Shown: positions 38,342 through 56,180, counted from the first letter of the stretch. The stretch: DNA of 64,000 nt from Candidatus Krumholzibacteriota bacterium (GCA_034520215.1 JAXHNR010000002.1:78060-142059), one strand, 5' to 3'. Program-made: numbers and translations. The notes: generated by a model not told the origin, from the sequence alone.

Positions 38342-38360
38342 AGATCAGAAAAGCTGTTGC

Positions 38361-38868: not shown

Positions 38869-39384
38869 TCAGGTCCAGGACCGAACAATGAATATCACGA
38901 GTATTCCCGTCGCGATGGCGAACTTGGCGAAAAAGGCCCATAGCTTGCCGACGAATGCCCAGAACCCCACGTTGATAGCGTTCTCCATCTTCTTGTACTG
39001 GATGTATTCGGCGGCTACCGCCCCGGCGAAGGCTCCGAACAGCCCGAAGATCACGCTTCCTATGACCGGCATGGCGGACGTCCCCAGCACAGCTCCGACA
39101 ATGCCGCCAGCCAGCGCCCCGACAGCACCCCACTTCGAGGCGCCTTTCTTAATCGCGACGGCCGACCCAAGCAGCACTTCTATGACCTCCCCGATCACCA
39201 CCAGCACGACCATCACCACCCACCACTGCCACCCGATAACGGTGAACTTGTTGGCCAGATCATATATTAATATGACTCCCAGACTAATCCATCCTCCCGG
39301 CAGTCCCGTAAATATGAGAAGATTTAAGAGGAATACCAAAAAATAGAGGAGGACGAGTCCCGTGTGCTGCAGAACCGATACCAA
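38869..39384 (-). CDS. DUF456-family small membrane protein
   Basis: Gly/Ala-rich TM helices, N-terminal FTGLPGGW motif typical of DUF456; markedly higher GC and different codon usage than flanks. Confidence 0.55.
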   Translation of the reverse strand: MVSVLQHTGLVLLYFLVFLLNLLIFTGLPGGWISLGVILIYDLANKFTVIGWQWWVVMVVLVVIGEVIEVLLGSAVAIKKGASKWGAVGALAGGIVGAVLGTSAMPVIGSVIFGLFGAFAGAVAAEYIQYKKMENAINVGFWAFVGKLWAFFAKFAIATGILVIFIVRSWT

Positions 39385-39530
39385 AACCTGCTCCTTTCAC
39401 AAGTCCATATAACATGAACAACTCGCCGTAATGAAACAGCCGCCGACTAGAACGATGACAGCTCTTATCTTGAACATGAACCTTAAAAATTCTAAGACAT
39501 CCGTCTTTTTATGTCAACGGCATCCCGGCC

Positions 39531-39837
39531 AGGACTTTCCCCAATTTTTATTACCACGCAGGAGATTAATTAATTCGTAAAGTATGCGGCTGAATGATAT
39601 TTTCAAAATCGTGGTCAATTCCCCCGGCGAGTGAATTGTACGCTCTGCGCCTCGGGCTCGCTCTTTCTGCCCCTTCGGGTCAGAAATCCTTGCCCGCTCG
39701 CCCTCCGGAGGGTTTTGAAAATATCATTCAGCCGCACTCATCAGCAATGAAAGCCCTATTCCACTTACTAATCCTGATAACTGATTGTATCTCGCAATGT
39801 TATTACAATACTTGCCGAATTTTCAGAGGGAACTCCA
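39531..39837 (+). mobile_element. 307-bp MITE-like non-autonomous element, copy 1, flanked by 10-bp direct repeat CATCCCGGCC
   Basis: Direct repeats at 39521..39530 and 39838..39847; ends GGACTTTCCCC.../...GGGAACTCC; internal 25-bp inverted repeat GCGGCTGAATGATATTTTCAAAA / TTTTGAAAATATCATTCAGCCGC around a GC-rich core; ~85-90% identical to copies 2 and 3 over the 3' two-thirds. Confidence 0.7.
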
Positions 39838-39959
39838 ACATCCCGGCCTCTCAGAAACAGACATAATATAAAGAAGTTGCCTTGAGGCCTTCTTTGGCTT
39901 ATAATCTCAAACCGTTAAATAATTAGCTTGTTTTTTATAACCGGTCTGGATGTTTACGA

Positions 39960-40226
39960 ATGAAAACTTTTATTACTATTTTTGCCACAGTTCTTTTCGC
40001 GGAGCTTGGAGACAAAACACAGATCGCCACTTTGCTCTTCGCGACAGATAAAGAGAATCCTAAATCAATGGTGTTCTTCGCCTCCGCGGCCGCGCTTGTC
40101 ACAGCTTCGGCGATCGCTGTCATGCTGGGAAAGATGTTCGAAAATTATGTAAATCCTAAATATCTTTCATGGATAGCGGGCGCGGGGTTTATTGTTATCG
40201 GGATCTGGACGATCGTTAAAGCTTAA
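39960..40226 (+). CDS. UPF0016 (GDT1/TMEM165) family membrane protein, single-repeat form
   Basis: Signature AELGDKTQIATLLFA (E-x-G-D-K-T), 88 aa, 3 TM. Confidence 0.65.
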   Translation: MKTFITIFATVLFAELGDKTQIATLLFATDKENPKSMVFFASAAALVTASAIAVMLGKMFENYVNPKYLSWIAGAGFIVIGIWTIVKA

Positions 40227-40347
40227 ATGTAACGGTTTTTTCAATACGCTGTGGGGGTCCTTTGCGGCAACTCTTCTTTCTTTTCTTTAGTATAATCTGA
40301 TATACATACTATACTTTCTATACTTTTTTATCTTAAAAAACTATCAT

Positions 40348-40680
40348 ATGAAAGGAAACCTGAAGAATGAGACCAGCATTAAATTTTGGGGTATAAAAGC
40401 AGAAAACGCGCGGTGGCTCACAATTCACGGAATCACTATCGAAGTTGAAAATAAACTCGAAGGGTTAGCCGTGAGCGGCATATACACAGGCGCGGATAAT
40501 CTGAGCGGTTTTTCCGCGTCAGCAGTTAACTGTTTTTATAACCGGCAGACAGGCATCACCGCGGGTATCTTTAATTACGCGGAAAATCTATCCGGAGTAC
40601 AGATTGGCCTCTTAAATATAGCCCGGAATAATCCGGCCTGGGCGCGATATCTTCCCGTTTTTAACGCTCATATCGATTAG
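40348..40680 (+). CDS. Hypothetical repeat protein (NLSGxQIGLLN-type tandem motifs); possibly a fragment
   Basis: Repeated G..G..N...ENLSGVQIGLLN segments; no signal peptide; short. Confidence 0.35.
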   Translation: MKGNLKNETSIKFWGIKAENARWLTIHGITIEVENKLEGLAVSGIYTGADNLSGFSASAVNCFYNRQTGITAGIFNYAENLSGVQIGLLNIARNNPAWARYLPVFNAHID

Positions 40681-40899
40681 CGAAAATCTTTTTCTCTTTT
40701 CAAATCATTATTACTTGACAGATGCACCCAAAAGGCTTTCTTATAGAAGTTGCGGCATGCTCTGTCGCGGCATGTCCGGATTGAATTTTCAAGCGATCAG
40801 TTGTCTTTTCTGACTTTAAGGTCCGGGGCGGCCGAAAAAACTATAGAAACTTTCTTTTTTGCTTTTTCTCTTTAAATTTATAAGAGGAGATGAACGGTT

Positions 40900-41979
40900 A
40901 TGAAAAAAGACGAACTTAAAAAAATGACAAAGAAAGAGCTTATAGCCCTCGCCCGGTCAAAGAAGATCCGCGTTACAACGAGAATGCTGAAAGCTGATTT
41001 GATCGACACGATCTACAAAGCTATCAGGTCAGGTAAGCCGAAGAAAGCAGCCGGCGGCGAGCCTAAAAGAAAAAAGGGGCGATCCGGTAAGCGTCCCTCC
41101 GCTAAAAAAACAGCAAGGAAGAAAACGGAAAAAAGCGCCATTGACTCCGGTGACCGGACAATCAGGCAAAAAGCTGTTGCCGGAAAATATTTTCTGAAAA
41201 AAGATTCTGGCCCGGATTTAATAAAAAACGAGACTTCGAGCCTTCCGGAATACGATATTACACGTATTGTGTGTATGGTCCGGGATCCACACTGGATATT
41301 CGCATACTGGAAAATATCTTCAGAAGAATATAATACTCTGAAAAGGAAATTCGGCTCATCACTTAAAAACTTTAGAACTGTTCTCCGTGTATATGAGGAC
41401 TCCGAAGGCGGAAAGAAACATTTCGATATCGATATCCCGGGCGATTCAAACAACTGGTATATCAATGTATCTGAGAGGTGCAGATACAGAGTGGGGATAG
41501 GAATGATTTCGCCCGATGGAATCTACGAAGAAATAGCTCTTTCCGATACTGTCGAAACTCCGCCCGAAGGGGCAAGCAAATACAGCGATGAAAAATGGTT
41601 CGTGTCCGATGCCGCTTTCAATGAAATCATTTCAGCTTCCGGGGACTTGAAGGAAAAGACCGGCTCTGAAGAATATTTAAAGGCTGAAAAGAACTCCAGC
41701 ATAGACTCTGAAACTGTTTCATCGTTCAGCGGCACCGAAAAAGGCCGGGAAGAGGATCCGCGGCCGTCTATTAAAATGGAGCTCGTCGTTTACGGAGCCG
41801 CCGGGAAGAACTCCCGGATCAATCTTCTTGGGAAAGATATCGAACCTAACGAGGACGGTTCTTTCTCAATCCGCATGGCCCTTCCCGAGGGTGAATTCGA
41901 ACTTCCCGTAAAACTGGTTTCCTCAGACGGCAAATTGAAAAAAACAGTTAAAGCAAAGATTAAAACGGAAACCCCTTAA
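40900..41979 (+). CDS. Rho_N-like + K/R-rich linker + DUF4912-like protein
   Basis: N-term MTKKELIALARSKKIRVTT (Rho termination factor N-terminal-like), basic low-complexity linker, then DITRIVCMVRDPHWIFAYWKIS domain. Confidence 0.55.
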   Translation: MKKDELKKMTKKELIALARSKKIRVTTRMLKADLIDTIYKAIRSGKPKKAAGGEPKRKKGRSGKRPSAKKTARKKTEKSAIDSGDRTIRQKAVAGKYFLKKDSGPDLIKNETSSLPEYDITRIVCMVRDPHWIFAYWKISSEEYNTLKRKFGSSLKNFRTVLRVYEDSEGGKKHFDIDIPGDSNNWYINVSERCRYRVGIGMISPDGIYEEIALSDTVETPPEGASKYSDEKWFVSDAAFNEIISASGDLKEKTGSEEYLKAEKNSSIDSETVSSFSGTEKGREEDPRPSIKMELVVYGAAGKNSRINLLGKDIEPNEDGSFSIRMALPEGEFELPVKLVSSDGKLKKTVKAKIKTETP

Positions 41980-41995
41980 AGGAAACGGTTTTGAT

Positions 41996-43600
41996 ATGAC
42001 TAACGGTCACAAAGGTTATCTAAGTCTGGTATTACACGCCCATCTGCCATATGTGCGGCATCCGGAGCACGCACGTTTTCTCGAAGAAGACTGGTTCTAC
42101 GAAGCGCTCACAGAGACCTACATTCCGCTTCTTGATATGTTTAACAGGCTGAAGGATGAAGGCGTTGATTTCCGCTTCACAATATCGCTTACCCCAACAC
42201 TTCTGTCAATGTTGGCGGATCCCCTTCTGCAAAACAGATATATCCGTCATCTGGACAGCTTGATAGAGCTTACCCGAAAAGAAATGACCCGTACCAGGTG
42301 GATGCCGGACCTTCTCGCTCTGGCGCGAATGTATCACGACAACTTCATAAAATGCCGCGGTATCTTTGCCGAAAAATACCACAAAGATCTCATCTCCGCC
42401 TTCAGATTCTTTCAGAATGAAGGAAACCTGGAAATACTGACGTGCGGCGCCACCCACGCTTTCATGCCTCTTGTAAAAAACAGAAAAGCCGCGGATGCTC
42501 AGATTAGAATCGCCGTCGATCAGTATAAAAACTTCTTCGGAAAGAACCCCGCCGGAATCTGGCTGGCTGAATGCGGCTACACACCCGGGTTGGAAGAGAT
42601 TCTGAAAGCAAACGGAATAAAATACTTCTTTACCGATTCCCACGGCATACTAAACGGCGAGCCGAGACCACGCTACGGCGTGTTCGCTCCCGTGAGCTGC
42701 CCGAACGGCGTCGCCTTATTCGGCCGCGACAACGAATCTTCAAAACAGGTCTGGAGCGCCAAAGAAGGCTACCCGGGAGATTACCAGTACAGGGATTTCT
42801 ATAGAGATGTGGGGTTCGATCTGGATTACGATTATATTAAACCCTATCTTCACGGTGACGGCAACAGAATCAGCCTGGGTATAAAATATTACAGAATAAC
42901 CGGCAAAGGCGAAGAAAAACAGATTTACGACCCCTCTGCCGCCGCAGAAAAAGCCGCCCTTCACGCGGGCAACTTCATGTTCAACAGAGAAAAACAGATC
43001 GAGCATCTCGAAGGATTCCTCGGAACCAAACCGATAGTTGTTTCTCCATACGACGCTGAGCTTTTCGGTCACTGGTGGTATGAAGGCCCCTTGTGGCTGG
43101 AACATCTTATGAGAAAACTGCATTACGATCAGAACTCGATAGTTCCGGTAACTCCGAGCGAATACCTGCGGGCCCGATCTGAAATTCAGGTAGTAAAACC
43201 GTCTATGTCCTCCTGGGGGTACAAAGGGTATAATGAAGTGTGGCTGAACGGAAGTAATGACTGGGTATATCCCCATCTGCACATCATGGAAGACAGAATG
43301 GTTGAGCTCGCCGGCAGATTTCCCTCAGCCTCCGGACTGCCCGAAAGGGCGCTTAATCAAGCCGCGCGCGAGCTACTTCTCGCCCAAAGCAGCGACTGGG
43401 CTTTCATAATGAAAACGGGAACAATGGTAGAGTACGCCCACAGCAGGACGAAAAGCCATATATCCCGCTTCGACAGATTATACCATTCCATTCTTTCTTC
43501 CCGTATAAATGAATCGTGGCTCAAAGAAATAGAAAGACGGGACAACATATTCCCCAACATTGATTACAAGGTTTACTCATCAACCGAGAATCAGTCATGA
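41996..43600 (+). CDS. Glycoside hydrolase family 57 protein (GH57 1,4-alpha-glucan branching-enzyme type)
   Basis: GH57 hallmark YLSLVLHAHLPYVRHPE; 534 aa typical of GH57 GlgB-like enzymes; 4-bp overlap with next GH57 gene. Confidence 0.75.
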   Translation: MTNGHKGYLSLVLHAHLPYVRHPEHARFLEEDWFYEALTETYIPLLDMFNRLKDEGVDFRFTISLTPTLLSMLADPLLQNRYIRHLDSLIELTRKEMTRTRWMPDLLALARMYHDNFIKCRGIFAEKYHKDLISAFRFFQNEGNLEILTCGATHAFMPLVKNRKAADAQIRIAVDQYKNFFGKNPAGIWLAECGYTPGLEEILKANGIKYFFTDSHGILNGEPRPRYGVFAPVSCPNGVALFGRDNESSKQVWSAKEGYPGDYQYRDFYRDVGFDLDYDYIKPYLHGDGNRISLGIKYYRITGKGEEKQIYDPSAAAEKAALHAGNFMFNREKQIEHLEGFLGTKPIVVSPYDAELFGHWWYEGPLWLEHLMRKLHYDQNSIVPVTPSEYLRARSEIQVVKPSMSSWGYKGYNEVWLNGSNDWVYPHLHIMEDRMVELAGRFPSASGLPERALNQAARELLLAQSSDWAFIMKTGTMVEYAHSRTKSHISRFDRLYHSILSSRINESWLKEIERRDNIFPNIDYKVYSSTENQS

Positions 43601-46101
43601 AGGAAAAGATTGATAAAAAACACCTGATTATTCACGGACACTTTTATCAGCCCCCCAGAGAGAACCCATGGACACAAAGAATAGACAGGCAGGAGAGCGC
43701 CGCTCCTTACCATGACTGGAATGAGAGAATAACCCGTGAGTGCTATCTTCCGAATTCCTGTTCCAGGCGTCTCGACGGATTCGGCAGGATAGAAACTCTC
43801 GTAAACAATTACACCCGCTTAAATTTCAATTTCGGCCCGACCCTCTTCAGATGGCTCGAGAAGCACCACCCCTCCCTCCATAAAGAGATCATCAGAGCTG
43901 ACAGAGCCGGCGCGGAACTGAATAAGGGACACGGCAACGCTATCGCTCAGGTTTATAACCACATAATCATGCCCCTTGCCTCAAAGAGGGATAAGGAAAC
44001 ACAAATACGCTGGGGGGTCAATGACTTTAAGCGATGTTTCGGACGGGAACCGGAAGGTATCTGGCTTGCCGAAACAGCCGTCAACCAAGAGACGCTTGAC
44101 ATTCTGATCGACTGGGGGTTCCGCTTTATCATACTTTCCCCCCACCAGGCGAAGAGCTTCCGCCCGCTCGGGGGAAAAGGGAAATGGAAAGATGTAACAG
44201 GCGGCACTATCCCCACGGGTTTCGTTTACCGCTGCCGCGGCGGCAGTGCTGAAGCCGGCAATAACTATATCGACATATTCTTTTACGACGAAAGGCTGTC
44301 ACAGGATATCAGCTTTAATCACCTGCTCAGGGACGGCGACCGTTTTGCCGAATCTATCGCTTCATCATACCGGCGCGGCGGAAACGACCTTGTTGCAATA
44401 GCAACCGACGGTGAAATTTACGGTCATCACGAACCCTTCGCGGATATGGCCCTCGCTCATCTTTTTGAAAGCGCAGCGGAAAAACATAATTTGACAATTA
44501 CAAATTTCGGCGCCTACCTCGACACGCACGAACCGGAGTTCGAAGTAAAACTTAAAAAAGGGGGAAACAATCTGGGAACAGCGTGGTCGTGCTCGCACGG
44601 ATTAGGCCGGTGGAAAGAAGACTGCGGCTGCAATGTGAACGCGCCCGAAGGGTGGAATCAAAAATGGAGAAAGCCTCTGAGGAACTCCCTTAATATTCTA
44701 AGAGACCGCCTCGCGAAGATATTCGATGCCGAGGGGGGCAGACTGCTCGAGGACCCGTGGAAGGCCCGCGACGATTATATCTTTGTTATGAACAGCGGCA
44801 GCACGGACGAGGTAAACTCTTTTCTCGCCGAACATTCAATAAAACCCCTTTCCCGGGAAGAAAAAATCATAGTTTTGAATATGCTCGAATCCCAGAGGAA
44901 CGCCTTGTTTATGTTTACCTCATGCGGGTGGTTTTTCAACGACATCTCCGGACTGGAATCCGTTCAGCTTATTAAATACGCCGCCCGCGCCATTGAGCTC
45001 GCGGGAGAGGAATACAGCGGGGGGCTGGAAGAAGAATTTCTTGCCGAATTACAGAAGGCCGAAAGCAATCGTGAAGATGTCGGAAACGGAGCTGAAATAT
45101 ACAGATCCAACAAGAAATTTTCATCAATCACCCCGTCCTTCATCGCCGGACAATACGCCTTATCCTCTCATCTTTCATGTCCAGAGGCTTCTCCCGAGAT
45201 GTTCGGCTGGTCTTTCAACAAGCTCGATTCATACTCTAAGGAATCGGGCGGAGGAATGATCTACTGCGGGCTGCTTGAAATTGAACCGCCTTTGATACCG
45301 GAACTTTTCACGTTCGGGTATCTTCTTATGATGGAAGAAGAAATTCAAGTTATCTGCCTTACCAGAGAATTTGAGGATTACGGAGAATTCGAAAAAATTA
45401 AAAAGAAAATCTCGGCTCTTCCTTCCGGAAGTAAAAGGAAGGATGTTCTGAAGTTTTCCGTTGATCATTTCGGGGGTCACGTTCTCTCAATCAGAGATCT
45501 ATTCCCCGAAGACAGAGACGCCATCCTCACGTCTATAACCGACAACAAACTCGAATCTCTCGAAGGCCTTCTTAAGGATATTTATCTTAAAAACAGAGAG
45601 TTCCTCCGACTCCTCAGCGAGTCATCCCTTACTCCTCCCGAGAGCATCCTCGTTCCCTCCCGCGTGTATCTCGAAAGGAAACTTTCTTTTGAACTTAGAA
45701 ACTGGCAGAAATCACTCCGGCCCGCTGGGATAGAAGGTATAAGAAAAATAATATCGGATGCTTCCTATTACGGAATCGATATAGACAAAAGCTCCGTTTC
45801 TGAGCTGTTTTCCGTCTTCTTGCTGGAAAATATCAAGAGGCAGAAGGAAAAACTTATTGCCGAAGAATCAGAGGCGATGATTCAGTTTGTCAATTTCTGC
45901 GGCGATATAGATATTGAAATCAAAACGGGGATGATTCAGAACCATATATTCACTATCTTAAATTCTACCTTCAAAGAGGAAGCGGAAAAACTCCCGCCCC
46001 GCTCAAAGAGAAGCGGAAATGAAGTGAAGCCGGTTCTTGAATTTCTCAATCTGGCCGAAAGATTCAACTTTAACATCAGCGCCTGGAAAGAACTCCTTTA
46101 G
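43597..46101 (+). CDS. GH57-family glycoside hydrolase with long C-terminal extension (DUF3536-like)
   Basis: N-terminal LIIHGHFYQPPRENPW GH57 catalytic motif; 834 aa. Confidence 0.7.
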   Translation: MKEKIDKKHLIIHGHFYQPPRENPWTQRIDRQESAAPYHDWNERITRECYLPNSCSRRLDGFGRIETLVNNYTRLNFNFGPTLFRWLEKHHPSLHKEIIRADRAGAELNKGHGNAIAQVYNHIIMPLASKRDKETQIRWGVNDFKRCFGREPEGIWLAETAVNQETLDILIDWGFRFIILSPHQAKSFRPLGGKGKWKDVTGGTIPTGFVYRCRGGSAEAGNNYIDIFFYDERLSQDISFNHLLRDGDRFAESIASSYRRGGNDLVAIATDGEIYGHHEPFADMALAHLFESAAEKHNLTITNFGAYLDTHEPEFEVKLKKGGNNLGTAWSCSHGLGRWKEDCGCNVNAPEGWNQKWRKPLRNSLNILRDRLAKIFDAEGGRLLEDPWKARDDYIFVMNSGSTDEVNSFLAEHSIKPLSREEKIIVLNMLESQRNALFMFTSCGWFFNDISGLESVQLIKYAARAIELAGEEYSGGLEEEFLAELQKAESNREDVGNGAEIYRSNKKFSSITPSFIAGQYALSSHLSCPEASPEMFGWSFNKLDSYSKESGGGMIYCGLLEIEPPLIPELFTFGYLLMMEEEIQVICLTREFEDYGEFEKIKKKISALPSGSKRKDVLKFSVDHFGGHVLSIRDLFPEDRDAILTSITDNKLESLEGLLKDIYLKNREFLRLLSESSLTPPESILVPSRVYLERKLSFELRNWQKSLRPAGIEGIRKIISDASYYGIDIDKSSVSELFSVFLLENIKRQKEKLIAEESEAMIQFVNFCGDIDIEIKTGMIQNHIFTILNSTFKEEAEKLPPRSKRSGNEVKPVLEFLNLAERFNFNISAWKELL

Positions 46102-46136
46102 CGTACAGCTCACTTTTATTATAATATATCCTGCCT

Positions 46137-48176: not shown

Positions 48177-48231
48177 CGGCTGGAAAGAAGATTAAAAGTT
48201 CCGCGTAATACTCAATTCATATTGATGATCT

Positions 48232-49116
48232 CTATTCACCGTCTTTATAGATACTCTTTATTCTGCCCCAGCTTGTCTTTTCAGCGGCTGAGGAGCCGTC
48301 CCACCCGGCAATGAGCGCCGCCATCCACCAGACCGCTCTGCCCTTCTGCTTGCAGCTTTCTATTGTCGTGTGCGCCGCTTCATCGCCGTTAAACTGTTCA
48401 TGCTCAACCGGCACGGAAGTCCCGTCGTAATCGTACGTATTCTGCTCCCACGACTCTGCCACAGGATTATACCACCAGGCGTCGAGATCGGCGAAGTCGT
48501 ATAGAACCCTGTTATTATCCAGGCAATGCTGTCTTATCTCTTGATTCCTGAGATATCTGTTGTATCCCTCTGCTCCCGTATACTGGGCATTGCCTGTCAT
48601 GTAAACGAATGTAACGCCCGGATATTCCGCTTCTAGCACACTTATCGAGTCAAGGTATGCCCGCGTCTGCTCCTGCGAATAGCCATTAAGCTCGGTGCAC
48701 CACGACCACATCGAAACGTTTATTTCCGGGTTGGCGTCAAGAACCGCTCTGGTCTTGTCCATCCCGCTTGCTGTGCTCCAGTATTCGTAAGTTGAGATAT
48801 ATGTGTCGCTGATCTGCCCGCCGTAAATGCAGAAAGCGCCCTCTTCTGTCGGCAGGGTATTATCTCCTCTCGCCACGCTGTACTTAGAATCGCCGGTTTC
48901 TATATAACTAAGCCCGGTTACAAGCTGACCCCCGTGAGAGGTGTGAGCGTAGTGAAGTTTTATAACCGCTTGAACAGAATCTATCCAGGCATCGGGGATA
49001 TCTGAAATTCCCTCGCATGTATGATCTATTATTACAGGTTCACCGCTCTGCCGAGCGTAAGATATATCCGCCGACACTAACCAGAAAAATGAAAGAACTA
49101 TTATGAGTTTTCTCAA
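48232..49116 (-). CDS. Secreted hypothetical protein
   Basis: Signal peptide MRKLIIVLSFFWLVSADISYA; no motif recognised. Confidence 0.45.
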   Translation of the reverse strand: MRKLIIVLSFFWLVSADISYARQSGEPVIIDHTCEGISDIPDAWIDSVQAVIKLHYAHTSHGGQLVTGLSYIETGDSKYSVARGDNTLPTEEGAFCIYGGQISDTYISTYEYWSTASGMDKTRAVLDANPEINVSMWSWCTELNGYSQEQTRAYLDSISVLEAEYPGVTFVYMTGNAQYTGAEGYNRYLRNQEIRQHCLDNNRVLYDFADLDAWWYNPVAESWEQNTYDYDGTSVPVEHEQFNGDEAAHTTIESCKQKGRAVWWMAALIAGWDGSSAAEKTSWGRIKSIYKDGE

Positions 49117-49381
49117 ATCTTCCCCCTAAGTATATTCCTACTGTTTATATCATAACTGAATAATTATACGGGACATCTGAAGTTCTATCACTTCCCCTTA
49201 TGGCCCTCTATTTTAACCATTATACACCATTTTCCCCCCAGTTTCAATAATTAGATTATTTGCCCCATATCAGCGGTCCTTATCTGAAAAAAGTGTTGTT
49301 ATAGAATGCTGTATTGGTATATTTAAAGAAACAAATTCATAGAGTTTAACTTATTTTTTTAAATAAGCCTGGAGAGTCAAA

Positions 49382-50494
49382 ATGATTATAGGTGTACCAA
49401 AGGAGATTAAAGAGGATGAATACCGCGTTGCTCTTATCCCCGTCGGCGCGGAAACCCTTGTAAAAAACGGCCATAAGGTTCTCGTGCAGAAAGGGGCGGG
49501 AAAAGGGAGCGGCTTTGAAGACAAGGAATACCGTGAAGCCGGCGCGGCAATAGTCGCCAAAGCTGCTGATATCTTCCGCCGCAGCGACATGATCATAAAG
49601 GTAAAGGAACCTCAGCCCGTTGAGATCAAAAAGTGCCGTAAAAACCAGATTATATTTACCTACTTCCATTTCGCCGCCAGCCGCTCACTTACCGAAGGCA
49701 TGGCACGGAGCGGAGCAACGTGTATAGCGTACGAGACAATGGCGGATGAAGACGGTTCACTGCCTCTTTTGATACCTATGAGCGAAGTGGCGGGAAGGAT
49801 GGCCGTGCAGGAAGGCGCGAAATACCTCGAACGTCCCATGGAGGGAACCGGTCTTCTTCTCGGCGGAGTGCCGGGGGTTGAACCCGCCAAGGTTGCCATA
49901 ATCGGCGGAGGTATAGTCGGGGCAAACGCCGCGAAAATGGCCGCCGGGCTGGGAGCGAAAGTGACAATCCTCGACATCGATCTCGAGAGATTGCGCTATC
50001 TCAGCGACGTCCTGCCGGCTAATGTAACTACGTTAATGTCCAATCCGGAAAATATCCGCAGATCGGTAGCTGAATCGAATCTCGTAATAGGAGCTGTTCT
50101 TATAAGGGGAGCAAAAGCCCCGCGTCTGGTTACGAAGAAAATGCTCAAGTCTATGAAAAAGGGTTCCGTCATTGTGGATGTCGCTGTTGATCAGGGCGGC
50201 TGTATAGAAACCATTAAGCCCACAACACACACCAACCCGACTTATATCATTAACGGCGTAGTCCACTACGGCGTCGCAAATATGCCGGGAGCTGTCGCGA
50301 GAACCTCAACATACGCTCTTACAAACGCCACTCTTCCTTTCGCCGTCAAGATCGCAAACGACGGCTTTGAAAAGGCGGCAAAGAAGAGCGGAATTATATG
50401 GACGGGTGTAAATATACTAAACGGCAGCATTACCGACAGAGCGGTAGCTAAAGCCTTCAGGAAGAAATACACACCGCTTGAAGAACTTCTGTAG
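49382..50494 (+). CDS. ald: Alanine dehydrogenase
   Basis: N-term MIIGVPKEIKEDEYRVALIP, NAD-binding VAIIGGGIVGANAA, 370 aa. Confidence 0.9.
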   Translation: MIIGVPKEIKEDEYRVALIPVGAETLVKNGHKVLVQKGAGKGSGFEDKEYREAGAAIVAKAADIFRRSDMIIKVKEPQPVEIKKCRKNQIIFTYFHFAASRSLTEGMARSGATCIAYETMADEDGSLPLLIPMSEVAGRMAVQEGAKYLERPMEGTGLLLGGVPGVEPAKVAIIGGGIVGANAAKMAAGLGAKVTILDIDLERLRYLSDVLPANVTTLMSNPENIRRSVAESNLVIGAVLIRGAKAPRLVTKKMLKSMKKGSVIVDVAVDQGGCIETIKPTTHTNPTYIINGVVHYGVANMPGAVARTSTYALTNATLPFAVKIANDGFEKAAKKSGIIWTGVNILNGSITDRAVAKAFRKKYTPLEELL

Positions 50495-50530
50495 CGCACA
50501 TTTTGCCGATACAAAATAGAAGAATAATTA

Positions 50531-50570
50531 AAGGTCTTCCGAATGAAACGGAAGACCTTTAATTTATATT
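50531..50570. terminator. Bidirectional rho-independent terminator between convergent ald and acyl-CoA synthetase genes
   Basis: Perfect 12-bp stem AAAGGTCTTCCG / CGGAAGACCTTT with 7-nt loop AATGAAA; T-rich AATTTATATT on + side, A/T-rich on - side. Confidence 0.7.
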
Positions 50571-50596
50571 CACTCTATAAGCCAAGAAACAGGAAA

Positions 50597-52498
50597 CTAA
50601 TCCTTTTTCGGATAACCTTCACTGTGAAGGTGCTCTTCTATCTCTTTAAGTGTGTCCGGGTCGTCTATAGTCGACGGAACTTTGAAATCCTTGCCGTCCG
50701 CTATCTTCCGGATCGTCCCTCTCAATATCTTTCCAGACCTCGTTTTCGGCAGTCTTTCCACTACTATCGCCTTTTTGAAGCTGGCGACCGCTCCTATTTC
50801 ACCGCGCACCATTGAGATAAGTTCACTCGCGATCTCATCCTTATCCCTGTTTACACCGTCTTTGAGTACTACAAATCCCACTGGCAGCTGCCCCTTGAAA
50901 GAATCGGCGACCCCCAGAACGGCACATTCAGCTATATCGGGATGAGTGGCGATAACCTCTTCCATTCCTCCGGTTGAAAGCCTGTGGCCGGCGACATTTA
51001 TAACATCGTCAACCCTCCCCATGATATAAACATATCCGTCTTCGTCTATAAAGCCGCCGTCGCCCGTAAAGTAGTACCCCTTGAACATATCCGTGTAAGA
51101 TTCTTTGAATTTCTCGTCGTTACGCCAGATTGTAGTCAGCGTTCCCGGGGGAAGCGGAAGTTTGATAACCACTATTCCCTCTTCTCCGGCAGGGAGCTTC
51201 TGTCCCTGATTATCAAGAATCTCGACCTGATAGCCGGGCACGGGCTTGGTAGAGGAACCCGCTTTTACTTCGAACTGTTCTATCCCCATACAGTTCGCGA
51301 CAATTGCCCATCCTGTCTCTGTCTGCCACCAGTGATCTATCACGGGAACTTTAAGTAAATCTCCCGCCCAGTCATAAGTGTCGGGGTCAAGTCTCTCTCC
51401 GGCCAAAAACAAATATTTAAATCCAGACAGGTCATAGTCTTCAAGCAGTTTGCCCTCGGGATCCTCCTTCTTTATTGCCCTGAAAGCTGTTGGAGCGGTA
51501 AAAAGGGCCTTGACCCGGTGCTCCGATATTACACGCCAGAAAGCGCCCGCGTCGGGTGTTCTTACGGGTTTACCCTCGTAGAGGATGGTAGTACATCCGT
51601 GAAGTAGAGGTCCGTAGACAATATACGAATGGCCGACCACCCAGCCCACATCAGACGCGGCCCAGTATACATCTCCCGGGTCGATCCCGTATACGTTCTT
51701 CATGCTCCACTTCAAAGCTACCGCGTGTCCTCCGTTATCCCGTACAACACCCTTCGGCATACCCGTAGTTCCGGAGGTATAAAGAATATAAAGGGGATCA
51801 GTTGACTTGACGGGTACACAGTCAACGGGCTTGCTCTCACGGGTTATTTCTTCCCAGTCTATATCCCTTCCCTCTATCATTTCCGCCGGAGCCTCTTTCC
51901 GCTGAAAAACAATACTCTTTTCCGGCTTGTTCTTCGAAAGCTTAATTGCTTTATCAAGAAGGGGTTTGTATTCTATCACTTTTTTTACTTCTATTCCGCA
52001 TGAAGCAGAGACGACCACCTTGGGATTGGCGTCGTCTATCCTTATGGCCAGCTCATGGGCCGCGAAACCTCCGAAGACCACGGAGTGAATAGCCCCTATC
52101 CTGGCGCACGCCAACATAGCGACAGCGGCCTGAGGAATCATCGGCATATATATAACGACCCGGTCTCCCCTGCCGACACCGAGCGAGGAGAGAGCGCCCG
52201 CGAATCTGCTGACTCTGCCCAAAAGATCGCTATAAGTGAACTTTTCCTTTTTCCCTGTTACCGGGCTGTCGTAGATAAGCGCTGTTTGATCCGCCCTCCC
52301 GTTTTCCACGTGCCTGTCAAGCGCGTTATAACAGGTGTTCATTTCGCCGTCGGCAAACCACCTGTAGAAGGGTTTATTTGAATCATCGAGTATCTCAGTC
52401 GGGGGTTTGTACCAGTCAATACCCTCTGAGGCTTTTTTCCAGAAAATTTCAGGGTTTTCTATAGATTCATTATACTGCTCTTTGTAATCGCCTTTCAT
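50597..52498 (-). CDS. AMP-forming acetyl-/propionyl-CoA synthetase (Acs/PrpE family)
   Basis: YTSGTTGMPKGV AMP-binding motif; N-term YKEQYNESIENPEIFW; C-term PKTRSGKILRGTIRKIA (Acs-type lysine motif); 633 aa. Confidence 0.8.
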   Translation of the reverse strand: MKGDYKEQYNESIENPEIFWKKASEGIDWYKPPTEILDDSNKPFYRWFADGEMNTCYNALDRHVENGRADQTALIYDSPVTGKKEKFTYSDLLGRVSRFAGALSSLGVGRGDRVVIYMPMIPQAAVAMLACARIGAIHSVVFGGFAAHELAIRIDDANPKVVVSASCGIEVKKVIEYKPLLDKAIKLSKNKPEKSIVFQRKEAPAEMIEGRDIDWEEITRESKPVDCVPVKSTDPLYILYTSGTTGMPKGVVRDNGGHAVALKWSMKNVYGIDPGDVYWAASDVGWVVGHSYIVYGPLLHGCTTILYEGKPVRTPDAGAFWRVISEHRVKALFTAPTAFRAIKKEDPEGKLLEDYDLSGFKYLFLAGERLDPDTYDWAGDLLKVPVIDHWWQTETGWAIVANCMGIEQFEVKAGSSTKPVPGYQVEILDNQGQKLPAGEEGIVVIKLPLPPGTLTTIWRNDEKFKESYTDMFKGYYFTGDGGFIDEDGYVYIMGRVDDVINVAGHRLSTGGMEEVIATHPDIAECAVLGVADSFKGQLPVGFVVLKDGVNRDKDEIASELISMVRGEIGAVASFKKAIVVERLPKTRSGKILRGTIRKIADGKDFKVPSTIDDPDTLKEIEEHLHSEGYPKKD

Positions 52499-52685
52499 GC
52501 GTCCTCCTTACAATCATCCCGCTTATTAAAAAGACGGCGCTCTTAAATCAGCACCTTGCTTGTTTTTCGTTCATCATTGATTTTACAGTATGTATAATAA
52601 TTATTTATTACACGGGCGACAACCATTTCCCGACATAAACCGGTAATCGCGGTCTTTTTACATCCCGCGCGGCGAAGAGAGGTTG

Positions 52686-53405
52686 TCACCGCTTTATAAT
52701 TTCTACCATTTCCCTTACAGCCCGCTCAATTCCCACAAATACGGCTCTCGAGATGATGCTGTGCCCGATATTAAGCTCTTCTATTTCTGTAATCAGCACT
52801 ACCGGCCTGACGTTATGGTATGTAAGTCCGTGTCCGGCGTGAACGTGAAGCCCGTATTTGACTGCTGTTTTCGCCGCGTCTTCCAGTCTTCCCAGTGCGG
52901 CATCACGATCCCCGCGGCTGATATTCGCGTATTCTCCCGTGTGGATTTCTATCGCGTCAAAACCCATCTTCGCCGCCGCCTTTATCTGGGAAATTTCCGG
53001 ATCTATAAAAGCCGTTGTCTTTATCCCGCCCCCTTTCAGAGCCGTCACAATATCGCCGTATTTACTGCCGTCGGCGAGAAGGTTCAATCCGCCCTCAGTT
53101 GTCAGCTCCTCTCTCTTCTCGGGAACCAGCGTTACAGAATCTGGATGCATTGCCATGGCTATCTCCTGCATTTCGGCACTCGCCGCCATCTCCTGGTTGA
53201 CCATAGTCTGAGCCATTTCACTTATAAGCCTGACGTCACGGTTCTGTATATGCCTTCTGTCTTCCCTCAAATGAAAGGTTATCTGATCGGCGCCCCCCTG
53301 TTCAGCCATCATCGCGGCGGTCACGGGATCCGGTTCAATGGTCTTTCTTGCTTCTCTCAAAGTGGCAATATGGTCTATATTTACTCCCAGTCTCATACGT
53401 TTCAA
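52686..53405 (-). CDS. pdxJ: Pyridoxine 5'-phosphate synthase PdxJ
   Basis: MRLGVNIDHIATLREAR...PDPV...HLREDRRHI closely matches the PdxJ N-terminus. Confidence 0.9.
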   Translation of the reverse strand: MKRMRLGVNIDHIATLREARKTIEPDPVTAAMMAEQGGADQITFHLREDRRHIQNRDVRLISEMAQTMVNQEMAASAEMQEIAMAMHPDSVTLVPEKREELTTEGGLNLLADGSKYGDIVTALKGGGIKTTAFIDPEISQIKAAAKMGFDAIEIHTGEYANISRGDRDAALGRLEDAAKTAVKYGLHVHAGHGLTYHNVRPVVLITEIEELNIGHSIISRAVFVGIERAVREMVEIIKR

Positions 53406-53415
53406 ATCCGCCTCC

Positions 53416-54660
53416 TTATCCTTTGCTGTTTTTTGATATCCTCGGTATCTCCCTTAAATTTACAAAACTTATCCCCCTTTTTCCAGCTTCGTCTTCCATC
53501 CACAGCAGATCTTTGAAACTTTCCCGCCTTACATGCAGAATCCCGAGCGCCCAGCCTCTTCTTTCCGCGATATCCATTATTTTCACCATATTACTCCTGA
53601 CATCCGCCCCCCTGTTATCGAGAAAAATATCGTTCCTCAGAGACGGCATGCCCATTGAAGGGGCGATTTTACCCGCGACCGACTTAGAAGAGGTAAGACT
53701 GTCGAAAAAGAAGAGGTTGTGCTTTCGGCATACCGAGAGGACCGCTTTCATCACCCTTGAATCCTCGGTAGCTTTTGACCCCTGATGATTGTTCATTCCC
53801 ACAACTCCCGGGGTATTAGAGATCGCGTCTTCAACAATTCCTTTAATCCTCTCATCACTCATAGAGACCCGCACAACAGGAACGCTGCCGCAGTCATCCG
53901 CTCCCCCTCTGGGTTCCATGGGCAGGTGACACAAAGCATCTTTCCCGGCTTTGTCTGCAAGCCGGCAGATATCCTTTGAATATTTAAGCCCCGGTATGAC
54001 AGATACGGTAATGTTTATATCAAGCCCGAGAAAATCCCTCACCAGTCTATTGTTGAAAAAACCGAAATCATCCACCACTAATGCCACAACCGGCCGCTTT
54101 TCAGGAGCAAGAACAGCATCAGCGCTTTTTGATATAATACACCTGTGAGTAACGCGGTTTCTTGTCCCTATCTCCATCTCTATTTTGTTTCCGGAGTCCC
54201 TTTCATAACAGCTTCTGACGCGCCCCCCTATTTCTTCGACCTTCATGTCTATTATATTATTTATCTTTATCAATGAACAGTCGGCGGGCACGTTGGTTCT
54301 CACAAGATATATATACCCGGATTCTACTCTCTCACCCGGTATGATCTCAATCGTATCCTTCTTGATTCCGTATTGTTTAAGAGCTTCCAGAAGACTGCCG
54401 GCGATATCTCTCCGTACATCTTCGTACTTTCCGCCGAAACCCATATCAAGCAAAAATATTCTTCCGTGAGTGGTGCTGAAATATCTTGCCGTTCCAAAGG
54501 CAATTATGACAAGAAGTGCGAGAAGCCCCGCGAATATCTTGAGTCTTGCCGCTATCTGCTTCTTTGTTTTCCGCTTCTTCGCGGCCAATTGGAAGTCTCC
54601 CTTCGAAATAGAATAGTATTTGCCGTTATAGAAGATGATCGTATGACGAGCGCGCGGCAC
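53416..54660 (-). CDS. Divergent polysaccharide deacetylase family protein (YibQ-like) with N-terminal TM segment
   Basis: TM near the N-terminus; C-terminal VALVVDDFGFF...HLPMEP YibQ/DUF610-type motifs. Confidence 0.6.
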   Translation of the reverse strand: MPRARHTIIFYNGKYYSISKGDFQLAAKKRKTKKQIAARLKIFAGLLALLVIIAFGTARYFSTTHGRIFLLDMGFGGKYEDVRRDIAGSLLEALKQYGIKKDTIEIIPGERVESGYIYLVRTNVPADCSLIKINNIIDMKVEEIGGRVRSCYERDSGNKIEMEIGTRNRVTHRCIISKSADAVLAPEKRPVVALVVDDFGFFNNRLVRDFLGLDINITVSVIPGLKYSKDICRLADKAGKDALCHLPMEPRGGADDCGSVPVVRVSMSDERIKGIVEDAISNTPGVVGMNNHQGSKATEDSRVMKAVLSVCRKHNLFFFDSLTSSKSVAGKIAPSMGMPSLRNDIFLDNRGADVRSNMVKIMDIAERRGWALGILHVRRESFKDLLWMEDEAGKRGISFVNLREIPRISKNSKG

Positions 54661-54723
54661 CTCGCGCAGTGCATGGATTATAAATACTCCGCGGGTGCAA
54701 TGTCAAGAGAGGTAAAATATTTT

Positions 54724-55030
54724 GTGGAGTTTCCCCAATTTTTATAACCTATAAGGTAGTCGATGATTTGTAACAGTATGCGGCTGATTGATATTTTCAA
54801 AATCGTGGTCGATTTCCCCGGCGAGGAAACCGCCACTCCCACCTCGGGCTCGCTCTTTCTGCCCCTTCGGGCCAGAAATCCTTGCCCGCTCGCCCTCCGG
54901 AGGGTTTTGAAAATATCAATCAGCCGCACTCATCAGCAATGAAAGCCCTATTCCACTTACCAATCCTGATAACTGATTGTATCTCGCAATGTTATTACAA
55001 TACTTGCCGAATTTTCAGAGGGAACTCCAA
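54724..55030 (+). mobile_element. 307-bp MITE-like element, copy 2, flanked by 14-bp direct repeat AGGTAAAATATTTT
   Basis: Direct repeats 54710..54723 and 55031..55044; ends GTGGAGTTTCCCC.../...GAGGGAACTCCAA; internal inverted repeat GCGGCTGATTGATATTTTCAAAA / TTTTGAAAATATCAATCAGCCGC (compensatory changes relative to copy 1). Confidence 0.75.
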
Positions 55031-55044
55031 AGGTAAAATATTTT

Positions 55045-55093
55045 CGAGCTCTCAGGGGAGAGCTGTAAAAAAGCCCTCTGTTTTCGAGGGCTT
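55045..55093 (-). terminator. Rho-independent terminator(s) downstream of lipoprotein gene 55137..55793
   Basis: On the minus strand AGCCCTC-GAAAACA-GAGGGCT followed by TTTTTTAC; a second hairpin CAGCTCTC-CCCT-GAGAGCTC just downstream. Confidence 0.55.
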
Positions 55094-55136
55094 GAATATG
55101 AGAATTATAAATCTTTTTATAATTAGTTCCGGCGCA

Positions 55137-55793
55137 CTATTTGGGCACATCCCGCGCACGGTATAAAAGATACTTTTCCGGATCTTCGGGGTCGGGGCCG
55201 ATGAAAAATTCAACATCGGAATCTCCGTTGTAGATTTTTGTCTCTCCCGGATTATCAGGGTCAGGTAATTCAAAGGTAAAAAAGTAATTTACCTTTTTAC
55301 TCCAGAAACCATCTCCCATACCACTCTCTTCAGTCCAGTCAGAGTCAAGACCAGAATATTCACTCAGAGTAATGTTTAATGTTCCTACGGCATTATTGAA
55401 TATTCCTTGTGTCCCCATCCACTCCTCTTGGTACGAAAGGATTTCCCCATATTCACTTACATCAGTTGGCTGATTGTACCAGATATAGCCGTCAGAAAAT
55501 TCCGGTTCCGGCCGCTGATCCGGTTCAAGAAGCAGTTCCTTGTACTTTTCTATATCTTTTTCCTCATAGACCCTGTCTATAATTTCAATACAATGATCCT
55601 TCTCCGTTCGATCGGGCCACGGTTCTTCATTTACCGGCTGATCTGTTGTTTCCTTTGGGTCAAGTATACATCCTGATGTTATAATAACCGAGAAAATCAA
55701 GGTTAAACTCAGTGCCGCCTGCAGTAATCTTCTAATCTTCATTGTCTGTATACCTCCTGGGCACATACAAATCACATGTTTATAATACCACAT
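55137..55793 (-). CDS. Acidic lipoprotein (218 aa), bracketed by element copies 2 and 3
   Basis: Signal + lipobox IITSGC; Asp/Glu-rich mature part; own terminator. Confidence 0.6.
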   Translation of the reverse strand: MWYYKHVICMCPGGIQTMKIRRLLQAALSLTLIFSVIITSGCILDPKETTDQPVNEEPWPDRTEKDHCIEIIDRVYEEKDIEKYKELLLEPDQRPEPEFSDGYIWYNQPTDVSEYGEILSYQEEWMGTQGIFNNAVGTLNITLSEYSGLDSDWTEESGMGDGFWSKKVNYFFTFELPDPDNPGETKIYNGDSDVEFFIGPDPEDPEKYLLYRARDVPK

Positions 55794-55830
55794 ATATAAA
55801 TAATATACAAGCTTGAAAATAATATTACTA

Positions 55831-56137
55831 TGTGGAGTTTCCCCAATTTTTATAACCTATAAGGTAGTCGATGATTTGTAACAGTATGCGGCTGATTGAT
55901 ATTTTCAAAATCGTGGTCAATTCCCCCGGCGAGGGAATTGCCACTCCCGCCTCGGGCTCGCTCTTTCTGCCCCTTCGGGTCAGAAATCCTTGCCCGCTCG
56001 CCCTCCGGAGGGTTTTGAAAATATCAAACAGCCGCACTCATCAGCAATGAAAGCCCTATTCCACTTACCAATCCTGATAACTGATTGTATCTCGAAAAGT
56101 TATTACAATACTTGCCGAATTTTCAGAGGAAACTCCT
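55831..56137 (+). mobile_element. 307-bp MITE-like element, copy 3, flanked by 9-bp direct repeat TATTACTAT
   Basis: Direct repeats 55822..55830 and 56138..56146; hairpin GTGGTCAATTCCC-CCGGCGAG-GGGAATTGCCAC at 55913..55943; inner inverted repeat 55883..55911 / 56013..56037. Confidence 0.75.
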
Positions 56138-56180
56138 GTATTACTATATATCTTAAAAAAACTGCCACCCTGTTTATTTA

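Follow-up and report, generated by a model that had tools for sequence, protein, structure and literature searches.

A short non-coding element of an uncultured candidate phylum, most probably a MITE derived from an IS4-family (Tn5-like) insertion sequence

Described prokaryotic MITEs include the Correia, ERIC and RUP elements and the IS231-derived MIC231 cassettes. MITEs such as QMITE2 of Coxiella burnetii are non-coding elements of 50-500 bp with terminal inverted repeats (TIRs) and short direct repeats, lie between genes, are predicted to give a very stable stem-loop transcript, and presumably move with the help of a related insertion sequence (IS) acting in trans (PMC10969869). Among the IS themselves, the IS4 family has the signature Y-(2)-R-(3)-E-(6)-K, and its IS4Sa subgroup comprises elements of 1150-1750 bp with ends CA------T and direct repeats of 8-10 bp (PMC2266710, De Palmenaer et al. 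2008, Table 1). Here we describe an element with all of these MITE properties in a 64-kb window (the whole stretch of DNA analysed, 64,000 nucleotides). We are highly confident that it is a non-coding MITE derived from an IS4-family (Tn5-like) insertion sequence; it is a MITE of known kind and a well-documented case. It differs from MITEs in general in its host, which belongs to the Krumholzibacteriota, an uncultured candidate phylum, in its GC-rich central ~150 nt, which resemble no sampled parent IS, and in a core whose conservation far exceeds that of the remaining sequence.

We found three copies of the element, all in one orientation, as the sole long repeat family that a repeat search detected within the window (Table 1). 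Inverted repeat (IR) searches gave three left-end and three right-end matches, where 0-0.15 would be expected by chance. The first-pass annotation had described three same-orientation repeats with perfect flanking repeats and imperfect TIRs, and this description holds at every copy. The flanking repeats CATCCCGGCC, AGGTAAAATATTTT and TATTACTAT are all present and perfect, with lengths of 9(10), 14 and 9 bp. The TIRs extend over ~18-20 bp (consensus NN-GGA(G/C)TTTCCCC-AA(A/T)(A/T)TT); GGAGTTTCCCCAATTTTT and the reverse complement GGAGTTCCCTCTGAAAATT agree near-perfectly over ~11 nt and imperfectly over ~18 nt. Copy 2 had been placed exactly, and copy 3 is present but had been placed one base off. 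The identical, constrained length of 307 bp that had been proposed is only approximate, since copies 2 and 3 have it but copy 1 measures 308-309 bp and a copy outside the window 306 bp. Copy 1 is the diverged copy, as had been noted: it is ~89% identical to either of the others, compared with 96.4% between copies 2 and 3, and its variable region carries an insertion of 2 nt. Its left end is CAGGACTTTCCCCAATTTTT and its right end, as the reverse complement, is TTGGAGTTCCCTCTGAAAATT. Copy 1 opens with CAGGAC, as is typical of the family; the preferred reading of its duplication is therefore 9 bp (CATCCCGGC) plus a C that arose by chance or from the element. Read on its minus strand, the MITE has the same sense as the transposase gene of the parent IS.

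Table 1. Positions of the element copies, their target-site duplications (TSDs) and their internal modules in the window
Feature	Position	Strand	Remarks
MITE copy 1	39530..39838	-	309 bp with terminal C, 308 if C given to TSD; most diverged copy
Copy 1 left TSD	39521..39529	.	CATCCCGGC, 9 bp; 10 if base 39530 included
Copy 1 right TSD	39839..39847	.	CATCCCGGC, same sequence as 39521-39529
MITE copy 2	54724..55030	-	307 bp; empty in L042, L043, L044
Copy 2 left TSD	54710..54723	.	AGGTAAAATATTTT, 14 bp
Copy 2 right TSD	55031..55044	.	AGGTAAAATATTTT
MITE copy 3	55832..56138	-	307 bp; empty in L041, L042, L043, L044
Copy 3 left TSD	55823..55831	.	TATTACTAT, 9 bp
Copy 3 right TSD	56139..56147	.	TATTACTAT
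Module, copy 1	39584..39737	-	variable segment 2 nt longer; compensatory AAT/ATT change in outer stem
Module, copy 2	54778..54929	-	25-bp outer stem, 64-nt core, apical hairpin
Module, copy 3	55886..56037	-	same module as copy 2

The flanking repeats had been taken for TSDs, with filled and empty sites proposed as a check, and we made this comparison with orthologous contigs of related Krumholzibacteriaceae (L041-L044), whose flanks are 77-91% identical to those in the window. Gene order is the same, copies 2 and 3 are precisely absent, and each target is present once. The single target at copy 2 is identical to AGGTAAAATATTTT at 13 of 14 bases, and that at copy 3 reads ATCGTAATA or ACCGCAATA on the minus strand. 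Thus, insertion is proven for copies 2 and 3, which are polymorphic for presence at orthologous sites; the repeats are TSDs, including the 14-bp one, which is a true duplication. For copy 1, these relatives offer no clean empty site because they differ across the entire 38350-39867 segment. Beyond the window, searches recovered the element from a single further MAG, the Krumholzibacteriales assembly JAWODM01, where two contigs carry it, and from no JGI metagenome. This different MAG carries the fourth full copy (L002:805-1110, 306 bp), flanked by the 9-bp TSD AAATGAAAA.

All three window insertions are intergenic. Copy 2 lies 4 nt upstream of the -35 box of a polysaccharide-deacetylase promoter, and copy 3 lies between the stop codon of a 200-aa gene (56181-56783, minus) and the start of a 201-aa gene (55137-55742, minus). 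The three insertions have disrupted no adjacent gene and have spared at least one core promoter. We found no conserved open reading frame (ORF) in the element: the sole frame open in all window copies has a stop in the L002 copy, and a protein search with this frame gave no match. The first-pass annotation had also reported no transposase in the element or the window, and our searches agree, as tblastn detected no homologue of the cognate transposase in the 64 kb and Pfam detected no transposase family among 30 window ORFs. Its description of the element as MITE-like and non-autonomous is likewise upheld by the TIRs and TSDs of each copy, the empty sites, and the lack of a conserved ORF.

The statement that the ends resemble no nameable IS family did not survive, since a search for longer autonomous relatives, which had been suggested, identified an IS4-family lineage with the same termini and a transposase. 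These full-length relatives measure 1451-1478 bp (~1.45-1.48 kb), have the ends CAGGAC(C/T)TTCCCC...GGGGAAA(G/C)TCCTG, share the MITE termini (CAGGAC/GTTTCCCCAAAA...) and make duplications of 9-10 bp; one IS found at three insertion sites has TSDs of 9, 10 and 10 bp (L017/L021, L020, L025). Most of the full IS sampled have CA...TG termini. The terminal dinucleotides of the MITE differ between copies (CA, GT or TT at one end, TT or CA at the other), and some copies, with dinucleotides unlike CA...TG, may no longer be mobilisable. The direct link between MITE and IS is one 188-nt IS end (L001:1-188), from a MAG other than the window's. There, the end of a transposase ORF (...AKRFFGIPDFRYYALADG...LPLFDT and stop) directly abuts TTGGAGTTTCCCCAATTTTTT, which matches the MITE left end over 20-22 nt by BLAST. 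This transposase C terminus with an identical IR is located in the second Krumholzibacteriales MAG, which itself bears the MITE. At the other end, the right ~100 nt of the MITE align with IS 5' leaders and have motifs in common with them, including AAGTGGAAT-GG; the window's own genome yielded no full-length IS that carries the exact leader of this MITE. Because the right ~100 nt are homologous to the IS leader, the element is, over this part, a type I MITE in the scheme of PMC10969869.

We characterized the transposase family from a profile of the L001 C terminus, which recovered PF01609 (DDE_Tnp_1) proteins of ~360-421 aa, in support of a DDE transposase. More than 3,650 homologues were retrieved by a profile search of public metagenomes; lengths of 416-423 aa predominate among the 120 that were listed. 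In the full-length relatives, a single transposase ORF of 418-420 aa (~419), with no programmed frameshift, fills each 1.45-1.48-kb element. The YREK motif Y-x2-R-x3-E-x6-K is present in 6/6 full-length proteins checked (P0177: YIKRWQVEETIRCIK). The best NCBIfam matches are IS4 models, led by NF033591, and IS701 models match weakly. The top score, 59.8 bits, is far below the curated equivalog cut-off of 152; therefore, the family is a divergent clade outside those models. Among annotated plasmid proteins, the closest homologues share only 29% identity.

Both sequence and predicted structure connect this family to the Tn5/IS50 transposase. A PDB sequence search with the family profile gave significant matches (E below 0.01) to Tn5 transposase only. 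The AlphaFold model of P0177 (pLDDT 85, pTM 0.84), compared with the PDB by Foldseek, had Tn5 transposase as its top five matches (E = 4e-15 to 2e-14, TM 0.60-0.68), the best of them over the full length (E = 4e-15, TM 0.67). The predicted fold thus resembles Tn5 transposase (PDB 1MUH, 3ECP, 4DM0) throughout, whereas sequence identity is only ~13-15%, the proteins are 418-420 aa long rather than the 477 aa of Tn5 transposase, and the family ends are CA where Tn5 has CT. Tn5 moves by cut-and-paste through a transposon-end hairpin and makes a 9-bp TSD. By analogy, we infer that the chemistry of the family transposase would be the same.

The IS also resemble the IS4Sa subgroup, a likeness that rests on ends, size, TSD, ORF and motif: the full-length relatives have 5'-CA ends with T at position 9 (CAGGACTTT), are 1.45-1.48 kb long, have one ORF without a frameshift and a complete YREK motif, and make TSDs of 9-10 bp. 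This duplication length fits the ~10 bp of the IS4 family, as against 4-6 bp in IS701, ISH3 and IS1634. The differences from IS4Sa, besides the low NCBIfam scores, are the one 14-bp MITE TSD, outside the 8-10 bp of the subgroup, and an inverted copy of the IR inside the leaders of the MITE-related IS. To our knowledge, such an internal inverted copy is not a feature of IS4Sa. The IS lineage to which the MITE ends belong is a divergent clade of the IS4 family that resembles IS4Sa in ends and TSD length.

From these comparisons, a mechanism can be proposed. The MITE retains the two TIRs and ~100 nt of the parent's upstream leader, with a ~150-nt GC-rich palindromic module in place of the transposase gene. 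In the window's genome, a ~419-aa DDE transposase from a full-length relative located elsewhere would bind both ends in trans and excise the MITE by Tn5-type cut-and-paste chemistry. The 3' ends would then be joined at staggered target positions, with a stagger of 9-10 bp in most cases and 14 bp in one, and gap repair would produce the flanking direct repeats.

The module is GC-rich (about 56%) within an otherwise AT-rich element. In copy 2, its near-invariant 64-nt core holds three short helices, and the loop of its apical hairpin is CUCGCCGG. None of the full-length IS leaders sampled contains the module, so the element is no simple internal-deletion derivative. One reading, compatible with derivation from an IS4-family element, is that the module functions as a structured RNA or structured DNA; we consider this possible but doubtful. 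Just as tentatively, it could enhance transposition, act as a leader or regulatory RNA that descends from the lineage's own IS, or serve as a MITE-spread sRNA or cis-regulator. Several observations point in this direction. In the core, 2 of the 64 alignment columns vary, whereas outside it the element has 58 variable columns out of 241 (Fisher p = 6e-5). Compensatory double changes occur at five base pairs (three in the 25-bp outer stem, two in the apical hairpin), although this covariation comes from 4-5 related sequences, and relatedness can inflate covariation measures. One more apical-hairpin pair alternates between A-U and G-U on the minus strand, where the plus strand would give an A-C mismatch, and many invariant G-U pairs are valid only on this minus, transposase-sense strand. 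In addition, 96% of cells are paired, versus 40-52% with partners slid by 1-3 columns, and fold z-scores are -6.6 to -7.4. In L001, the core and one stem arm are joined to a different downstream sequence, and the core is therefore present in a second context.

Other observations argue against a function. DNA-level processes, for instance template switching or conversion, can preserve a palindrome, and MITEs commonly yield highly stable hairpin transcripts without known function (PMC10969869). Rfam 15 gave nothing at the gathering threshold in the window and no relevant match even at E <= 10 for copy 2 and L001, and a search for the module outside these elements did not find it.

The strong RNA structure, together with a TSD length that varies (9, 9-10, 14), could also suggest a retrotransposed, SINE-like or retron-like element, with its 9-14 bp duplications made by target-primed reverse transcription. 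This is very improbable. A DDE IS family has identical TIRs and itself produces TSDs of 9-10 bp, and ranges of TSD length are documented for IS4-family subgroups (PMC2266710). An A-rich tail is absent, the scanned window ORFs include no reverse transcriptase, and Rfam has no retron or group II intron match.

Copies 2 and 3 are only 0.8 kb apart, on either side of the same gene, as might arise if a non-mobile intergenic repeat had been copied by segmental duplication or by recombination, with the flanking repeats inside longer duplicated segments. We give this reading almost no weight: the flanks past the 9-14 bp repeats are unrelated between copies, the termini match a transposase-encoding IS family, and the empty-site alignments contradict it, since relatives with the same gene order have both sites empty and the target once, which shows the duplications to be site-specific. 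The long internal palindrome and structured GC-rich core recall REP/BIME-type palindromes, which a RAYT (IS200/IS605-like) transposase mobilises, or IS110-type elements, which have a bridge RNA, but either is extremely unlikely, as the TIRs and 9-bp duplications match a DDE IS and contradict both readings, the scanned window ORFs include no Y1 or DEDD recombinase, and neither REP/BIME-RAYT nor IS110-type families are known to have TIRs or 9-bp target duplications.

The unusual feature of this MITE is its palindromic module. We consider it rather unlikely that the module, which pairs best on the transposase-sense strand, is a functional structured RNA or DNA element of an undescribed kind. If it is, it may be a leader or regulatory RNA of a lineage-specific IS, or it may be a cis-acting transposition or expression unit that the MITE has spread to promoter-proximal sites.

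A repeat search recovered a single long repeat family in the window, with three same-orientation copies at about 39.5, 54.7 and 55.8 kb (see table). When the copies were aligned with their flanks, the homology between them ended exactly at the flanking direct repeats. The first-pass annotation had given three same-orientation copies of 307 bp with perfect direct repeats; orientation and repeats hold as quoted, while its copy 3 coordinates need shifting up by one base and the length of 307 bp is inexact for copy 1. Identity is 96.4% between copies 2 and 3, and copy 1 is about 89% identical to either. The imperfect terminal inverted repeat (TIR) also noted there, GGAGTTTCCCCAATTTTT versus the reverse complement GGAGTTCCCTCTGAAAATT, was borne out; each end pattern, with up to 3 mismatches allowed, matched three times in the window, always at the copies, against a chance expectation of 0-0.15. 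No tRNA or tmRNA was found in the window.

Features of the window and architecture of the module inside the repeat
Feature	Position	Strand	Length	Details
Copy 1	39530/39531-39838		308-309 bp	flanking direct repeat CATCCCGGC(C)
Copy 2	54724-55030		307 bp	flanking direct repeat AGGTAAAATATTTT
Copy 3	55832-56138		307 bp	flanking direct repeat TATTACTAT
Module			~150 nt	outer stem of 25 bp (GUGCGGCUGAUUGAUAUUUUCAAAA and its complement), GC-rich core with three short helices, apical hairpin
Polysaccharide-deacetylase promoter	54677-54706	minus		perfect sigma-70 consensus TTGACA-18-TATAAT, conserved in relatives
SecD ORF	34499-36232		577 aa	named from syntenic contig L037
ORF	21026-22288	minus	420 aa	no Pfam family at E <= 1e-5; set in a TPR/DUF4159 gene cluster
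ORF	48232-49116	minus	294 aa	no Pfam family at E <= 1e-5

We compared the insertion sites with four Krumholzibacteriaceae loci (L041-L044, from GCA_964554125.1, GCA_035311885.1, an ENA assembly and a Logan contig). In these relatives, the genes beside copies 2 and 3 keep their order, the flanks are 77-91% identical to the window, and both elements are absent. At the copy 3 site, the relatives read ...AAGATAT-ATCGTAATA-TCATTTTC... or ...-ACCGCAATA-TT..., and the window reads ...AAGATAT-ATAGTAATA-[307 bp]-ATAGTAATA-TTATTTTC... At the copy 2 site, (G)AAATATTTTACCT is present once in the relatives, directly before CTCTTGACA, and the window has AAAATATTTTACCT on either side of the element. Because the relatives are empty at both sites and carry the target once, the elements are insertions and their flanking repeats are target-site duplications (TSDs), as the first pass had proposed. 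Judged from these alignments, the 14-bp duplication at copy 2 is genuine, with no misplacement of the boundary. The copy 1 site was not comparable because the relatives carry a different segment of 7.7 kb in place of window 38350-39867 (a DUF456 gene plus the element), and the empty-site evidence is that of copies 2 and 3.

The copy 1 segment lies between a SpoIIE-type phosphatase gene and a GDT1 gene. In the corresponding interval of the syntenic contig (L037:8237-15987), the relatives' genes are those of a GDSL lipase, an aminotransferase, a PIN/VapB toxin-antitoxin pair and an HTH-M78 pair. The junction is conserved, and the segment in it is a variable island.

The genes around the copies are ordinary chromosomal genes, and all three insertions are intergenic. 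Exact protein look-ups matched window proteins MDZ7860434 to MDZ7860449; the window genes include a GAF-SpoIIE phosphatase, glycogen-metabolism genes, LigA ligase, alanine dehydrogenase, propionyl-CoA synthetase, KsgA and MetRS. Copy 2 sits 4 nt upstream of the polysaccharide-deacetylase promoter, which is left intact, and copy 3 lies after a stop codon and before the start region of the following gene. No U-tract of the terminator type was found behind the long hairpin, and any regulatory effect of the insertions on host genes is speculative. Copies 2 and 3 are two independent insertions that bracket, within 1.1 kb, one 201-aa gene of unknown function (interval between the copies, 55031-55831). 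A composite transposon was ruled out for this pair, as the relatives hold the same gene without the elements; AT-rich intergenic DNA may be locally preferred, which would account for the pairing.

The reported lack of a transposase in the window was upheld: a Pfam scan of 30 window ORFs showed no transposase family, and tblastn queries from eight transposases of the cognate family (described below) gave nothing significant. To look beyond the window, we searched a 24-nt pattern from the core, the near-invariant 64-nt part of the module, against 185,579 species-representative genomes. Two contigs matched, L001 and L002, both from the Krumholzibacteriales MAG BLK5-2.bin.162 (JAWODM01). The L002 copy is complete at 306 bp, has 92% identity to copy 2 and is flanked by a TSD of 9 bp, AAATGAAAA, and the L001 copy is cut off by the contig end. 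JGI metagenomes scanned with a core 25-mer and a left-end 24-mer gave zero matches, and looking for spurious ORF calls on further element copies, as a route to more of them, turned up none. Three inverted-repeat matches in viral contigs were rejected as chance, all lying within phage coding regions. In public data, the MITE family looks lineage-restricted.

The opposite end of L001 led to an autonomous relative. There, an ORF (...AKRFFGIPDFRYYALADG...LPLFDT*) terminates right at TTGGAGTTTCCCCAATTTTTT, the left-end repeat of the MITE. This 56-aa transposase C-terminal fragment had no match in Pfam or NCBIfam, and its close homologues were all short fragments on broken contigs. The family was reached solely via an exhaustive profile search: a profile of those fragments, run against 1.84 billion representative proteins, retrieved proteins of ~315-421 aa that match PF01609 (DDE_Tnp_1), and the long matches, used as a profile in turn, gave over 3,650 homologues from public metagenomes at E <= 1e-10. 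Among the 120 homologues listed, most are 416-423 aa and lie on 1.3-2 kb contigs, as expected because a multicopy IS breaks assemblies.

On the contigs of five homologues, complete IS elements measure 1451-1478 bp and end in CAGGAC(C/T)TTCCCC(A/C)AAA...TTTTGGGGAAA(G/C)TCCTG. The IS of transposase P0235 has three insertion sites with matching flanks and TSDs of AACTTCGCC (9), GATCTTTCTC (10) and ACCAGCTCAC (10); no TSDs were seen on the IS contigs of P0263, L010 and L011. Thus, the termini and TSD length are the same as those of the MITE. Nearest to the Krumholzibacteriales fragment are the family members P0177 and P0166 (64-69% identity over the C-terminus), and for one of the two the downstream end, GGAGTTTCCCCAATTTTTAAGG, is the same as the MITE end over 20 nt. 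A longer autonomous relative with the same termini, which the first pass had named as the thing to look for, was recovered, and the first pass's MITE reading is backed by both the empty sites and an identified parent family.

On the P0235 contigs (L016-L025), left and right flanks are variously combined across samples, with three matched pairs and further mixed pairs, which suggests assembly chimeras or recombination between IS copies. Because these flanks are mixed, TSDs read from short metagenome contigs need care. The element tips also vary. We compared positions 39530-31, 39837-38, 54724-25, 55029-30, 55832-33 and 56137-38 with L002, L010 and L011; the outermost dinucleotide is CA, GT or TT on one side, and on the opposite side TT or CA (reverse complement). 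Full-length IS tips are CA...TG in P0235, P0263 and L014, with AC and AG at the downstream tip in L010 and L011. Such change is unusually frequent for positions normally critical to DDE transposases.

Several lines of evidence place the parent among known families. All six full-length transposases checked carry the YREK motif (Y-x2-R-x3-E-x6-K), and the IS has a single ORF without a frameshift. NCBIfam gave only sub-threshold matches, with IS4 models best (59.8 bits against a cut-off of 152), then IS701 models. In a PDB sequence search with the family profile, Tn5 transposase was the sole significant match (E below 0.01), at E about 0.006-0.009. An AlphaFold model of P0177 (38-sequence alignment; pLDDT 85, pTM 0.84) matched Tn5 transposase over its full length (E = 4e-15, TM 0.67). 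Among annotated plasmid homologues, the nearest are labelled 'transposase', come from Thermus and Deinococcus and are only 29% identical. The IS4 family is defined by the YREK motif, absence of a frameshift and TSDs of ~10 bp, and members of its IS4Sa subgroup measure 1150-1750 bp, end in CA------T and are flanked by direct repeats of 8-10 bp (De Palmenaer et al., PMC2266710); the parent IS fits the family definition and also the subgroup in ends, size and TSD length. Based on its motif, single ORF, TSDs, ends and Tn5-like model, we therefore file it as a divergent IS4-family clade, IS4Sa-like by ends and TSD. This replaces the initial view that the ends resemble no nameable IS family.

Read in transposase sense (the window minus strand), the MITE opens with ~100 nt homologous to IS 5' leaders, with TAAC, AGTTAT and AAGTGGAAT-GG in common. 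In full-length IS elements, the terminal repeat recurs internally and inverted, ~105-115 nt in from the upstream end (for example GAAAAATTGGGGGATGTTC and TTTTTTTGGGGAAACTC), as seen in aligned contigs L010:132-336, L011:135-339, L014:1-173, L017:99-287 and L026:1326-1500. With the upstream end, this repeat makes a built-in mini-element of ~130 bp, and short MITEs could derive from it, or it could act as an additional transposase-binding or regulatory site. At the internal-repeat position the MITE instead has the extra module, followed by ~50 nt of spacer and terminal repeat. L001 has the upstream arm and core followed by other downstream sequence, with the second arm absent; the core thus occurs in another, longer setting, which may be the lineage's own IS leader.

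Other arrangements of these parts were observed on retrieved contigs. A free-standing 133-bp unit at L002:1120-1250, CAGGAAGTTCCCCCAATTTTT...AATTTTTGGGGAAAGTCCTG, matches the segment of the IS leader from its left end to the internal repeat and adjoins the 306-bp copy; no TSD was recognised for it. L008:1513-2233 joins a MITE-like unit of ~410 bp, whose ends are of IS type and whose GC-rich structured insert is a different one, to a decayed IS 3' part in which just the last 55 transposase codons are kept. This composite suggests that the IS leader region repeatedly gains GC-rich structured inserts. An identical 11-nt flank, GAAATGAAAAT, lies beside the IS end in L001 (189-199) and the MITE left end in L002 (1111-1121), with differing sequence farther out; it could reflect target preference, carried-over flank or recombination between copies.

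Conservation of the module raises the question of whether it is a functional structured RNA or DNA, which we consider unlikely, a minority possibility. Among four complete copies, 2 of the 64 core columns vary versus 58 of the other 241 (p = 6e-5), and compensatory double changes occur in three pairs of the outer stem and two of the apical hairpin, five in all. A further pair of that hairpin alternates A-U/G-U, valid on the minus strand only. Paired cells reach 96% versus 40-52% in slid controls, and for four of five measures the observed values were reached by 1-7 of 500 shuffles, although the count of further pair types was equalled in 435 of 500. This covariation rests on four sequences, all related; DNA-level processes can hold palindromes symmetrical, and MITEs typically give stable hairpin transcripts (PMC10969869). 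Rfam had no hit in the whole window at gathering thresholds and nothing relevant at E <= 10 for copy 2 and L001; the sole near match, an ordinary terminator hairpin at 55065-55100, lies outside the element. A covariance model of the module, run over 160 kb of retrieved sequence including other IS leaders, recovered the known copies and the partial L001 copy and nothing else.

The evidence supports reading the Krumholzibacteriota element as a MITE, lineage-restricted and part of a divergent IS4-like clade. It has TIRs, TSDs and insertion polymorphism, its ends and TSD length recur in full-length IS, and those encode a YREK, Tn5-like DDE transposase. By analogy with Tn5 and Tn10 of the IS4 family, a full-length copy at another genomic locus would supply transposase in trans, and this enzyme would pair both ends and excise the element via a transposon-end hairpin. 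The 3'-OH ends would then be joined 9-10 bp apart in the target, with gap repair giving the duplication. The lone 14-bp TSD suggests some slack in target capture; TSD ranges are tabulated for IS4-family subgroups, for example 10-13 bp (PMC2266710). Unusual details are limited to the conserved structured module, the internal inverted repeat in IS leaders and the variable element tips.

The literature searched held no mobile-element description for Krumholzibacteriota, an uncultured candidate phylum in which an active or recently active MITE is now documented with filled and empty sites. The MITE is tied to a large, unnamed IS4-like clade that falls below curated annotation thresholds and whose members are mostly found in assemblies as orphan contigs of 1.4-2 kb. 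The termini and TSD rule permit masking and annotation of such repeats in MAGs and help account for contig breaks, and the insertions are usable as strain-level markers. The conserved structured module is the sole part that could open something new.
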